Below, piece after piece: positions 1,401 to 12,533 of a stretch of DNA of 60,000 bases (positions within the stretch are counted from its first letter, which is position 1; each line of letters starts with the position of its first letter). The DNA is taken from contig CM075989.1 in NCBI GenBank assembly GCA_038087875.1, forward strand, positions 10,232,001 to 10,292,000. Direction: 5' to 3'. Under the pieces are notes generated by a model. The model did not search any database. It had not been told where the DNA came from and saw only the letters and a program-made list of their open reading frames with translations. The position numbers and the translations under genes were made by a program. This DNA is from Malacoraja senta (lineage: Eukaryota).

Positions 1401-1716
1401 CTTCTTGTTCTTGTTCTAAACTTGTTCTTCTCATCCACCCAACAGTTCGGTGGATCTGAAGATAGACACAAAGTGTTGGAATAACTCAGCAAGTGAGGCA
1501 GCATCCATGTACACTTTTGTTTGTTAGTGCATTTATATAGCTTCTATAGGGCAAGAAAATATCCCAATTACCTTGGCATATTTTTTTCACCCTCTTACGT
1601 TCTCTCTAAATCCAGGCGTTATAATGCAGAGATGATATGAGGCAGGGTTGAATTCACCAAATCAACTGGCAAAATGGTGATACAAGGGGACATGCACAAG
1701 GTTGCTGGGGAGCAAA

Positions 1717-1850
1717 CTTCTTCTTACTTATGGCATGCACAGCCTAAAGTTGAAGACACCAAAACACTACATCTATTTGTTTGTGCACGTCAGGTTGATT
1801 GCATTAGTCGAAACAGGGTGGACCACGTGAAGGTTGCCATCTCCCACCCC
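1717..1850 (-). mobile_element. HDV-ribozyme-headed short retroelement (SIDE/SINE-like), copy A
   Basis: Homologous to 4236-4375 with the same 5' end; (AAG)n tail; flanks ggagcaaact/ggggcaaact look like a TSD. Confidence 0.8.
1797..1850 (-). ncRNA. Minimal HDV-like ribozyme, copy A
   Basis: GGGGUGG-GA-GAUGGCA-ACC-UUCACGU-GGU-CCACCCU-GU-UUCGA-CUAA-UGCAAUC; P1, P2, P3, L3 and J4/2 can all be assigned. Confidence 0.8.
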
Positions 1851-3267
1851 AGGGGCAAACTGGAACAGGACCCTCATTAAAAGGTATCAAGCTGTGAATG
1901 TGATCTGAGGAAACACATATGGATGCCTCCAAAAGTCACAAGATTAACATTTTTGCACAAAGTTGAGGGTTTCACATTTTCATTCTGTTATGAAGTTCGT
2001 GCTCGTTGTGAAAAACTAAAACCAGGGACTTACCGTGCAGACAATTTATTGCACAGGAAATTCCTAAGAGCAATCTTCCATCGCGCCCTACCAGTGGCCT
2101 TTAACCAAAGTGTTTCTGCCAAGGACTGAATAGGTTATATCTGGAAACAATTGCTTCAAGTACCCGAGGTATACCTTGATACCAAGGCTAGTGTACTGAC
2201 TGTGAGGGCAGGTAATCGATTTGCATTCTACATCCTTCCCTGTCCAGCTGGCAATACAGAAGAATGTAGGGAATGTTTGTGACAGAAATTAAATTTGACA
2301 ATAAGTAAACAATGAAAAGTGTCCTTGTTAACAATGGAAGAGTAGAGGATTCATTTGGAAATACAGAAATAATTATGATCAGAGTGTCGTAACGCAAAAA
2401 CCAAAGTCACTCAAAATTGCTTCGTGAAACTTTTCCCTGTGGGAAGTTACATGTAGAAGAAATAATGTATTGGAGTGAACAAGAGCAAAATGGTCATGAG
2501 TGATTCTGCGATACTCCAGTACACCAGACACAATACCTATGGAATGGAAGAGTCCCATTTCCTCTGGATGACAGTGAATAAATCACCCAATGTCTTTCTA
2601 CTATCTACAAGGCAGGCTTACCTGGATGAGTGTAAATTCTTCACCATTTAAGAAACATCCAGGATGAAGCCACATCCCATGCACCAGCCAAAACATGGCT
2701 TCTCTCCACCATCAGAGCTTACTGTCCACAAGGTACAGTCCAGCAGCTTGCTGAGAGTCTTAAAGCATCCCCTTTACTGTCTGGAATGGCAAGTGCAGTA
2801 AGCGGATGGAAAAGTTGGCAGCTGATAGAGCTGCTGCCTCATACCAGATGAGGAGAATAAATTGGGTTACGAAGGGATTGGTATGAAAATATGTCTTTGA
2901 TGGTCAGTGTGGACTCAGTGGATTGTTGATGAGTGTAACTCCTAACACTGTAACACTGGGGAGAGGGAGGGTGTGTAGCTTCCACATAAGATTGGAGTGC
3001 AGGGATAGGATGACACACTACCAACTTCTCAAGACAAACTTCGAGACAAGCATCCTTTCCAGCATGCCTTCATTCTGACAGAGTATAACAGAAAGATGTC
3101 AAGTCCTTATTAATGCCTTCTCACATCAGACCTGCAGTGGAGTTCCTATCATTGGAGGTTATCTCTAAAACAATGTTATGTATGATGTGGTTATATCTAG
3201 AAAAAAAAAAGGTAACATGCACATAGGGATGGCAACTTTGAAGAAAAGAACAGTGTAAATATTCCTA

Positions 3268-3832
3268 AAGGGGCTGTCCCACTTGGGCGACCTAATTGGC
3301 GAGTTTAGAAGAGTTTAGGAGAGTTTGAAAAAATGCCATGTTGTAGACCTCCTTCGACTATGTAGAAGACCTCCTTCGACCTCCTTCGACTATGTTGAAG
3401 ACTAGCTTCGACTAGCTACGACTAGCTACAACTAACTTCGGGAAAATTGGACAAAGAATAGTGGAGAGTGAAGATGACCTCCTTCAATCACCTTCGACCT
3501 CCCTTCGACCTCCCTTCGACTATGATGAAGACTATCTACGACTACCCTCGATTACCTACGACTAACATGCCGACCTACTACAACTAAACCTACGAGTAAA
3601 AAAAGTATAGATTTTTTCCATGGCGACCTTTTTTTACTCGCGGGCATTTTTCAACATGTTGAAAAATATGCCGCAACCTAGCTGAGGCCTCGAGTAGGCG
3701 GAGACCACTCTCGAGCATGAAGGAGAGTTACAAAGACCACGTACGACCTCGTGTCGACCATGCTGCGAGTATGAGTCAAGGGCAAACTAGCCAGAACTCG
3801 CGGATTAGGTCGTCCAAGTGGGACAGCCTCTT
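3268..3832. mobile_element. MITE (non-autonomous DNA transposon), AAGGG[G/C]CTGTCCCAC TIR family
   Basis: About 28 bp TIRs (aaggggctgtcccacttgggcgacctaat / attaggtcgtccaagtgggacagcctctt), TA on both sides, internal CTTCGAC/CTACGAC heptamer repeats. Confidence 0.85.
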
Positions 3833-4235
3833 TAGTTGTACATCTTCTTAAGTCCCTCACCCCTGGTAAAATCTTTCCCTGCATCCTTTCTAAGGTTGCA
3901 ACGTCACACCAAATCGTGGGGCTGGAATTATCCACAAACTCCAAATCGAACTGGGAAACTCTCACTGGACAATATTTATCCCAGAACCAAATGGATTATC
4001 TGGCCCTTAGTGGGAGATGGTTGCGTACAAACTGGCTGCTGTGCTTTGTACAGTGCTACAATAATGGCTCTTCAGAAATCATTCACTAGTACAATCACTG
4101 GGTGATTTTGGTGGGGGATTTTGGTGGGGAATCAAGAAAGTCAGTGTGTAGATTCAAAACCTGATTTCCTAGTAATCAACAATCTGTGATGCACATGCGT
4201 GAGAATGTAGAAACAAAGAACTGCAGACAGTGGTT

Positions 4236-4375
4236 CTCTTCTTGTTGCGTGTGGCGTGCACAGCCTAAAATTGTAGGACAACTTGTTCTATTTGATCTTA
4301 TTTGATTGTGCACGCCAGGTTGATTGCATTCGTCGAAACAGGGCGTACCACGTGAAGGTTGCAATCTCCCACCCC
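4236..4375 (-). mobile_element. HDV-ribozyme-headed short retroelement (SIDE/SINE-like), copy B
   Basis: Ribozyme head, 11-bp hairpin (4252-4262/4307-4317), AAG-rich tail, degenerate 12-bp TSD cagacagtggtt/cagatagttgtt. Confidence 0.8.
4322..4375 (-). ncRNA. Minimal HDV-like ribozyme, copy B
   Basis: GGGGUGG-GA-GAUUGCA-ACC-UUCACGU-GGU-ACGCCCU-GU-UUCGA-CGAA-UGCAAUC. Confidence 0.8.
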
Positions 4376-4445
4376 CAGATAGTTGTTAATATACAAAAAG
4401 ACACAAAGTGCTGGTGTAACTGGGTCAGGCAGAACATAGATAGAT

Positions 4446-11329: not shown

Positions 11330-11957
11330 GAATGCGATCTGAAAGGTACTTCCCCCAGTACTAGAGGTGCTGTTGAGTGTGCTACAACCTTCTCAACAAC
11401 ACTCCGGCCAGACATGGTCCTGTGGTCCACAACAGCCAAGTTGGCATACGTTGTGGAATTGACAGTTCCATGGGAAGATGGTGTTGAAGAAGCTTATGAG
11501 AGGAAAAAGACCAAGTACTCTGAACTGGCAACTGAAGCTTCCCAGAACGGCTGGATGACCAAGATTTTCCCTGTCGAAGTGGGATGCAGGGGATTTGTTG
11601 CTACATCTATGACCAGGCTATTAAAGAAAATGGGGGTGAGGGGTTGCTCCCTCCAACAAGCAATCAAGTCATTATCAAATTCTGGGGAAATACTGCAATT
11701 GGATCAAAAGGAGAGACAACAATTGGGCTGCAAGATGAAGACAGGAGGGTATGGAATTGAGAGGGGTTGTACCTCGGACACCAGGTATCACCGTTGAGCC
11801 CTCTGGAGATGTTGTGGGCTTATCAATGAAACGTCAAAGAAGGAGGGTGCCCACCTGATGACCCCGATGACGTACCTACCCTACCTTTCACCACTCCAAT
11901 CCCACTGCAAATAACAAGAGTGCCGACTTATTACAGGGATTGAAACATCAAGTCCTA
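11330..11957 (+). mobile_element. HERO-like (RLE-bearing, R2 group) non-LTR retrotransposon 3' fragment
   Basis: LRPDMVLWS..VVELTVPWED..ERKKTKYSEL..PVEVGCRG is a PD-(D/E)xK restriction-like endonuclease domain; 3' UTR follows. Confidence 0.85.
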
Positions 11958-12533
11958 TTAGCTCTACTGACCCTGAGACAGAGGGACTGCTCAGGAGATG
12001 CGGCTGGTGCCTCACCAGCAATAATCACATCCTGTGGTCTGTGGACATGGTGGAAACTTCTGGGGGAGGAACCAGAGCTGGGAGCATATTCTTGGACTAA
12101 CCCTAAAGCAGCGTTGAACTTTCTGTGTTTTATCTGGCACAGACGGATTCCTGATCCCTATCTGACAAAGTGAGAATAGATTGCACAATACAAGGAAGTT
12201 TTTGAAAGATTCTTCAAAATAATTGAAAATCTCTCACGCCATGACTGATTTCACAAAAATTCAAAAAGATGGAATGATAAGGCAGAAGAATTAATATGAC
12301 TCATTTCAGAGAATACAATATACACAGACAGATTGTGATCTGGTAGCTTGTTCAACGGGACTATGAGTCTCCCTTGTTAACTCTCATTACTCAGAAAGTT
12401 CTGAGCTGTGGGGAGTCTGAATGAATTCTGCTCACTTTCCTGCCCCAGTTCTCCCTGAACTCTGCAGGAAGGAACTGCCGATGCAGGTTTAAACCGAAGA
12501 TAGACACAAACAGCTGGAGTAACTCGAAGGGCT

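Follow-up and report, generated by a model that had tools for sequence, protein, structure and literature searches.

A bipartite short retroposon of a probable Vingi-type LINE in Malacoraja senta headed by a putative minimal HDV-like ribozyme

Some non-autonomous short interspersed nuclear elements (SINEs) use hepatitis delta virus (HDV)-like or hammerhead ribozymes, according to a review (PMC6765202). Drosophila R2 short internally deleted elements (SIDEs), together with SIDEs that are R2/R1 hybrids, are non-autonomous, combine a 5' HDV-like ribozyme with the 3' end of a long interspersed nuclear element (LINE) and lack an RNA polymerase (Pol) III head; they are ~500 nt long, specific to ribosomal DNA, low in copy number and called rare (Eickbush & Eickbush 2012, PMC3414825). 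The trypanosomatid elements NARTc, RIME and SIDER are bipartite derivatives from the Ingi/L1Tc clade, the sister of Vingi, and begin with the 5' HDV-like ribozyme Pr77, which is active there (PMC4035085). Bipartite derivatives of Vingi itself, such as those of Vingi-1_EE, have been described, although the list of ribozyme-bearing clades in the same paper omits Vingi (Kojima 2018, PMC5786205). The minimal HDV-like and theta ribozymes, described from gut phages and often tRNA-adjacent, have no P4 domain and a catalytic C that comes first in J4/2, and no hit is listed for the human, mouse and protist genomes scanned in that study (bioRxiv 2023.06.13.544163). Here we analyse an element of ~135-140 nt that occurs twice, at 4375-4236 (copy A) and 1850-1717 (copy B), both on the minus strand, in a 60,000-nt stretch of the Malacoraja senta genome (the window; GenBank assembly GCA_038087875.1, contig CM075989.1, positions 10,232,001 to 10,292,000). 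It has the same construction as the Vingi derivatives and probably belongs to the same clade. Compared with the R2 SIDEs, it is 135 nt long, dispersed and found some 9,000 times or more, with a parent of the APE endonuclease type and a P4-less ribozyme; compared with the protist elements, whose 77-nt head has a P4, it is an animal element with a 54-nt head and a CPEB3-type L3; and unlike the phage ribozymes, its ribozyme is the head of a retroposon. We put at about 80% the probability that it is a bipartite SIDE of a Vingi-type LINE, headed by a minimal HDV-like ribozyme of predicted activity and spread by the LINE machinery.

The short element and its parent LINE

The two window copies are 81% identical across 138 nt (E 1e-30, in a comparison inside the window). 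As the preliminary description had read them, both start at the same base, G1 of the putative ribozyme and its predicted cleavage site, carry AAG-type tails and lie between degenerate target-site duplications (TSDs), of 12 bp for copy A and 10 bp (9/10 identical) for copy B, where one additional base precedes G1 (Table 1). It had also noted a lack of Pol III A and B boxes, and the element indeed matched neither generic A/B-box patterns nor anything in a tRNA gene search; its head is a LINE 5' untranslated region (UTR), not the Pol III gene-derived head of a canonical SINE.

A full-length LINE sharing both ends, for which the preliminary description had proposed a search, lies at G000:C8:~19402166-19404966 (~2.8 kb, read at its two ends) and has the same head, a ~105-nt 5' UTR, an APE domain, the same tail and an 11-bp TSD. 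Atypical letters upstream set apart 82 of the tail matches, and 14 stretches from this group were examined: one (L102) proved to be the 3' end of a LINE, with a reading frame for a C-terminal Cys/His knuckle region, and the other 13 were short copies or truncations. L102 had 492 candidate relatives, of which 40 were scored, all at 91-100%. Protein searches located copies of the family extending to the APE start, and three of four 5' probes for the focal family had the same head, the fourth (L112) being truncated. An RVT_1 profile search (150 of 159,857 candidates scored) was uninformative. Two other candidates for the parent were rejected: L091, in which 3.36 kb separate head from tail, is a single copy interrupted by an unrelated insertion, and a LINE fragment at window positions 11330-11960 has no AAG tail.

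Copy B consists of nt 1-96 of the LINE 5' end fused via 2-nt microhomology to the last 40 nt of the LINE, final codons and stop included (alignment to LINE 5' nt 2-96; 35/40 identical at the 3' end), and the element is therefore a bipartite, internally deleted LINE, that is, a SIDE, a known kind of element. In copy A, 81 nt come from the LINE 5' end and 45 nt from its 3' end, with a new middle of 13 nt between them. Both ends match one LINE of the same genome, and the copies are dispersed, with TSDs and fixed ends. These shared ends suggest that the short element is mobilised in trans by the parent LINE protein.

The full-length relatives encode ~1000-aa proteins with APE and reverse transcriptase (RT) but no RNase H (zero hits in the five relatives scanned) on ~3.2-kb contigs; the parent, at ~2.8 kb, is too short for RNase H. 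Its C-terminal zinc-knuckle region gives a weak zf-RVT match. The architecture of parent and relatives fits the description of Vingi in PMC13708176 and, with no named clade reference among the matches, it is from this architecture that we take the parent to be a Vingi-type LINE. The preliminary description had favoured RTE as the partner. Bipartite derivatives are typical of RTE (PMC5786205), and our matches offer no named Vingi reference with which to align. A parent from RTE or another clade is nevertheless very unlikely, given the C-terminal zinc-knuckle region and the ~1000-aa relatives with APE and RT but no RNase H, which match the Vingi description (PMC13708176). The AAG tail is common to other LINEs of the group, clear AAG repeats ending five of the 15 3' ends of relatives shown. 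AAG-like tails are typical of RTE elements, but to our knowledge the RTE open reading frame (ORF) ends after the RT, with no zinc knuckle. The earlier interpretation of a ribozyme-headed, non-autonomous element with a LINE partner thus holds, as a SIDE built from LINE 5' and 3' ends, and its choice of RTE is not supported.

Copies of the parent LINE at L110/L111 (G000:C2339) and C8:52752077-52754772 have an inverted 5' part, as from twin priming. A protein of the eel Synaphobranchus kaupii (P0003) is ~75-88% identical to decayed parent LINE copies in the best segments, compared with below ~60% for the other named relatives, and horizontal transfer of the parent LINE is possible given this similarity. 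L060:510-776 is part of another Vingi-type LINE that is more distant (33% aa to P0001), and L113 (G000:C2:54943510-54943750) and L114 (C1:165943990-165944220) belong to a third Vingi-type family with near-intact ORFs of 886-965 aa.

In the 1.94-Gb genome, a 27-nt head pattern and a 25-nt tail pattern, each with up to two mismatches, matched 8,811 and 9,613 times, respectively, both lower bounds, and the reversed patterns matched zero times, bearing out the high copy number guessed from two copies within 3 kb. Detailed samples comprised the first 30 exact matches per pattern on contig C1, which are non-random, overlapping sets that include duplicated loci. Of the head-picked loci, 28/30 run through to the tail, and 28/30 tail-picked loci carry the head at full length and start at G1. 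TSDs of 7-14 bp (mode 12) were detected in 27 of these 28 full-length tail-picked copies and ended at G1 or G1+1 in 22 of the 27. The 5' ends are thus sharp at the predicted cleavage site, and extension past the ribozyme into a longer element, the pattern that would have counted against the proposal, was met only as the predicted full-length parent LINE. Heads diverging right after P1.1 were sought with a dedicated pattern, which matched two deletion copies only. Twenty public sequencing runs (14 studies, 11 organism labels) contain at least half of the element's words, seven of these runs being possible sources of the DNA, and in all four runs compared, contigs exit the element at 4375 (141-326 contigs) and 4237 with unrelated flanks beyond (agreement ~0.35). 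There were no RNA data among the listed runs that contain the element, and no exact match to the head in metagenome or viral contigs. Element copies also lie inside a ~3.14-kb tandem array at L100 (G000:C20:6844479-6860549).

The 11-bp stem of the preliminary description is complete in copy A, where it is more stable than shuffles (z -3.81, with 0/200 shuffles as good); copy B has only an 8-bp core with a G-U pair, of a stability not above shuffles (z 0.30). The two arms derive from the LINE 5' UTR and 3' UTR, between which the parent (L110, L111) has 8 bp of complementarity. Two substitutions linked to the new middle lengthen the stem from 8 to 11 bp in the derived subfamily, the extended G being present in 22/30 classifiable copies with the new middle and 0/6 with a LINE-like middle. 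Contigs of three relatives (4-7% flank divergence) continue into copy B and end at the boundary of copy A, which hints weakly that A is the younger of the two. Pairing of the UTRs, over 8 bp in the LINE and further in the derived subfamily, may be why these clades need both ends.

The putative minimal HDV-like ribozyme

The 54-nt head threads onto the HDV fold as a 7-bp P1 opening with a G1-U pair, a 2-nt J1/2, a 7-bp P2, a 3-bp P3, an L3 of UUCACGU, a one-pair P1.1, 5 nt in place of P4 and then C-N-A-A. It has the nested double pseudoknot with P1, P2 and P3 in HDV order, the G1-U pair at the first base of the element, a 7-nt L3 with U...G, a C-G pair as P1.1 and a predicted catalytic C opening J4/2. 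With no P4 domain, only 5 nt separate P1.1 from this C, as in minimal HDV-like ribozymes, and the phage origin and tRNA adjacency of theta ribozymes do not apply. In seven heads of five sequence types (the two window copies, the LINE, L116, L117, L157 and L145), a small set of related sequences that we picked ourselves and in which P2 of L157 and L145 is misaligned, pairing was 94% in P1, 100% in P3 and 78% in P2, with 25 cells of two-sided change; shuffles gave 9.5 and slid controls no more than 5. Across these related families, L3 and the predicted catalytic C are near-invariant while the helices covary. A head descriptor found 86 heads in 360 kb of sequence and none in the reversed sequence. 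Among 51 distinct copies, family-level variants preserve the fold and fall at J1/2, in P1 (U-A to U-G) and at the second base of J4/2; variation elsewhere in the head is confined to G1 and CpG sites. Covariation supports the fold, and we infer from the fold that the head is a minimal HDV-like ribozyme.

Several points, the make-up of the covariation set among them, weigh against the overall interpretation. RT was seen in the full-length relatives only, the parent family having been read at the APE start and C-terminus, and the clade name Vingi comes from architecture and not from a phylogeny that includes named references. Both window copies have a single mismatch in a helix, in P1 (copy A) or P2 (copy B), and the fold is perfect in 11/30 tail-picked copies, which is expected decay yet limits present activity. 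P4 is only 5 nt long, and a possible 2-bp hairpin of nt 37-44 would mask the catalytic C. The focal head also matched nothing in Rfam, whether at the gathering threshold or with E allowed up to 10; across the window, Rfam gave zero hits at gathering and four chance hits at E up to 10.

The lack of an Rfam hit would suit a coincidental fold or a dead relic on an ordinary bipartite LINE fragment, as would minimum-free-energy folding of the head, which was no better than shuffles and did not recover the pseudoknot, a structure the method cannot model, and the Vingi-type family of L113/L114, in which no Rfam ribozyme was found within the ~230 nt read upstream. However, the head has each of the three helices, the G-U first pair, L3, the G of P1.1 and C-N-A-A, the sister heads described below exceed the CPEB3 cut-off and the reversed-sequence controls gave zero matches, making coincidence or a relic extremely improbable.

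We propose that an internal deletion fused the first ~96 nt of the LINE to its last ~40 nt, the junction product being observed, and that copies are transcribed most likely by Pol II read-through from a host transcript. The ribozyme would cut just 5' of G1 and release a defined 5' end; the LINE APE/RT protein would bind the retained 3' end, probably aided by the stem between 5' UTR and 3' UTR; and target-primed reverse transcription, as established for LINEs, would produce the ~12-bp TSDs and slippage-lengthened AAG tails that are observed. The later subfamily of copy A would have arisen by remodelling of the middle and growth of the stem from 8 to 11 bp. Alternatively, the head might serve mainly as an internal promoter for Pol II, or as promoter and ribozyme at once in the manner of Pr77 of L1Tc/NARTc, with transcription starting at G1 and cleavage secondary or vestigial in the short element. 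Pr77 combines both functions in the sister Ingi/L1Tc clade (PMC3383444), and a 135-nt template needs no ribozyme to acquire sharp 5' ends, but G1 is the element start and helix letters change from family to family with pairing kept, a pattern more in keeping with selection for RNA structure than for a DNA motif. We consider a promoter role of either kind unlikely and favour the ribozyme-headed SIDE. If even one third of the copies are intact, as in the 11/30 sampled, the genome would hold some thousands of predicted self-cutting sites, and an intron strand bias would be expected.

Sister heads and the CPEB3 ribozyme

The focal head shares an identical L3, a one-pair P1.1 and the G-U first pair with the CPEB3 ribozyme (RF00622), and differs from it in P1, P2 and P3; it gave no RF00622 hit, and so lies below the 35-bit cut-off. 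The CPEB3 ribozyme is single-copy and intronic and has a P4. Heads of other families pass the cut-off. In another Vingi-type family, L115 (C8:937615-937698) matches RF00622 at 52.6 bits, and a genome-wide search (59 of ~102,000 candidates scored) gave at least 51 hits, at least 39 of them above the cut-off and the best at 64.2 bits, compared with zero hits in 14 control genomes. When the top 21 of 51 RF00622 hits were compared with 10 of 106 APE hits, chosen by eye, eight of the 21 sat 59-111 nt upstream of an APE match on the same strand, against a rough chance expectation of 0.0007. At least eight RF00622 hits are thus LINE heads, unlike the intronic CPEB3 ribozyme.

The long-P4 type (L115; L116, G000:C21:8958106-8958189) has 16 pattern matches, reaches 64.2 bits and belongs to a Vingi-type family in which some copies have open frames of 926-1014 aa. 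The P4-less type L117 (G000:C13:8596080-8596144), known from its head alone, scores 43.7 bits, agrees with the model consensus at every base of a 23-nt run and has 99 pattern matches, among which variants recur. Since P1 and P3 letters vary freely among the relatives, the fold does not dictate identity there, and shared ancestry is therefore favoured over convergence. In unrelated contigs, a strict head descriptor matched upstream of one of 22 APE-type starts (L157), Rfam gave one sub-cut-off match among 16 loci (L145, 25.2 bits), and the same core was seen by eye in L139 and L169 and, decayed, in L153 and L155 (16 loci viewed). Most unrelated APE-start loci tested had no similar head; many were truncated or distant, and the 5' region of L118 was different. 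L115 also contains tandem repeats of the 5' half of its ribozyme.

The CPEB3 ribozyme is stated to be unreported outside mammals, and its ancestral reconstruction was made without outgroups (Bendixsen et al. [quoted passage not shown] The sister heads and their adjacency to Vingi-type ORFs suggest a transposon origin for the mammalian CPEB3 ribozyme, and they supply outgroups and make that origin testable. It is somewhat better than an even bet that animal Vingi-type LINEs generally have CPEB3-type heads, that the thousands of copies of the present element carry a minimal and active version, and that the CPEB3 ribozyme of mammals is a domesticated Vingi 5' end. HDV-like ribozymes from lamprey and lancelet (PMC13635239) may turn out to be Vingi-type heads. 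A full-text literature search, with Repbase, Dfam and patents outside its scope, returned no report of a Vingi ribozyme, of the present element or of a transposon origin of the CPEB3 ribozyme. Provisionally, two things are new: that Vingi-type elements carry a predicted ribozyme, and that a predicted minimal HDV-like ribozyme reaches high copy in an animal, by which the P4-less HDV-like ribozymes would extend beyond phages. If these assignments are right, Vingi joins the ribozyme-bearing LINE clades, which is relevant to Vingi-based gene-writing templates (PMC13708176).

Feature coordinates and neighbouring repeats

Table 1 Parts of the two window copies. Ribozyme helices of copy A are from threading onto the HDV fold.
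Feature	Position	Strand	Remark
5' TSD, copy A, 12 bp	4376..4387	-	10/12 identical to 4224-4235
Putative 54-nt HDV-like ribozyme, copy A	4322..4375	-	G1 = 4375
Ribozyme P1, copy A	4369-4375/4340-4346	-	Threading
Ribozyme P2, copy A	4360-4366/4322-4328	-	Threading
Ribozyme P3, copy A	4357-4359/4347-4349	-	Threading
Ribozyme L3, copy A	4350-4356	-	Threading
Ribozyme P4 remnant, copy A, 5 nt	4333-4337	-	Threading
Predicted catalytic cytosine, first base of J4/2, copy A	4332	-	By HDV/CPEB3 architecture
LINE 5' UTR-derived part, copy A	4295..4375	-	71/80 identical to L108
5' arm of 11-bp stem, copy A, from LINE 5' UTR	4307..4317	-
Subfamily-specific middle, copy A	4282..4294	-	No match to LINE ends compared
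LINE 3'-derived part, copy A: last codons, stop, short 3' UTR, AAG tail	4237..4281	-	39/45 identical to L111
3' arm of 11-bp stem, copy A, from LINE 3' UTR	4252..4262	-
3' TSD, copy A	4224..4235	-
Putative 54-nt HDV-like ribozyme, copy B	1797..1850	-	G1 = 1850
LINE 5'-derived part, copy B, 96 nt	1755..1850	-
LINE 3'-derived part, copy B, 40 nt with AAG tail	1717..1756	-	2-nt microhomology at junction
5' TSD, copy B	1852..1861	-
3' TSD, copy B	1709..1718	-	Overlaps last tail bases

Copy A is inserted in another common repeat (4200-4235, 4388-4440), and paralogue contigs join both flanks without it. At 3265-3835, the window contains a high-copy element resembling a miniature inverted-repeat transposable element; its terminal inverted repeats measure ~40 bp, and short repeats lie inside it. 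The LINE fragment at 11330-11960 is 5'-truncated and of the restriction-like endonuclease (RLE) type, and by its motifs we take it to be HERO-like.
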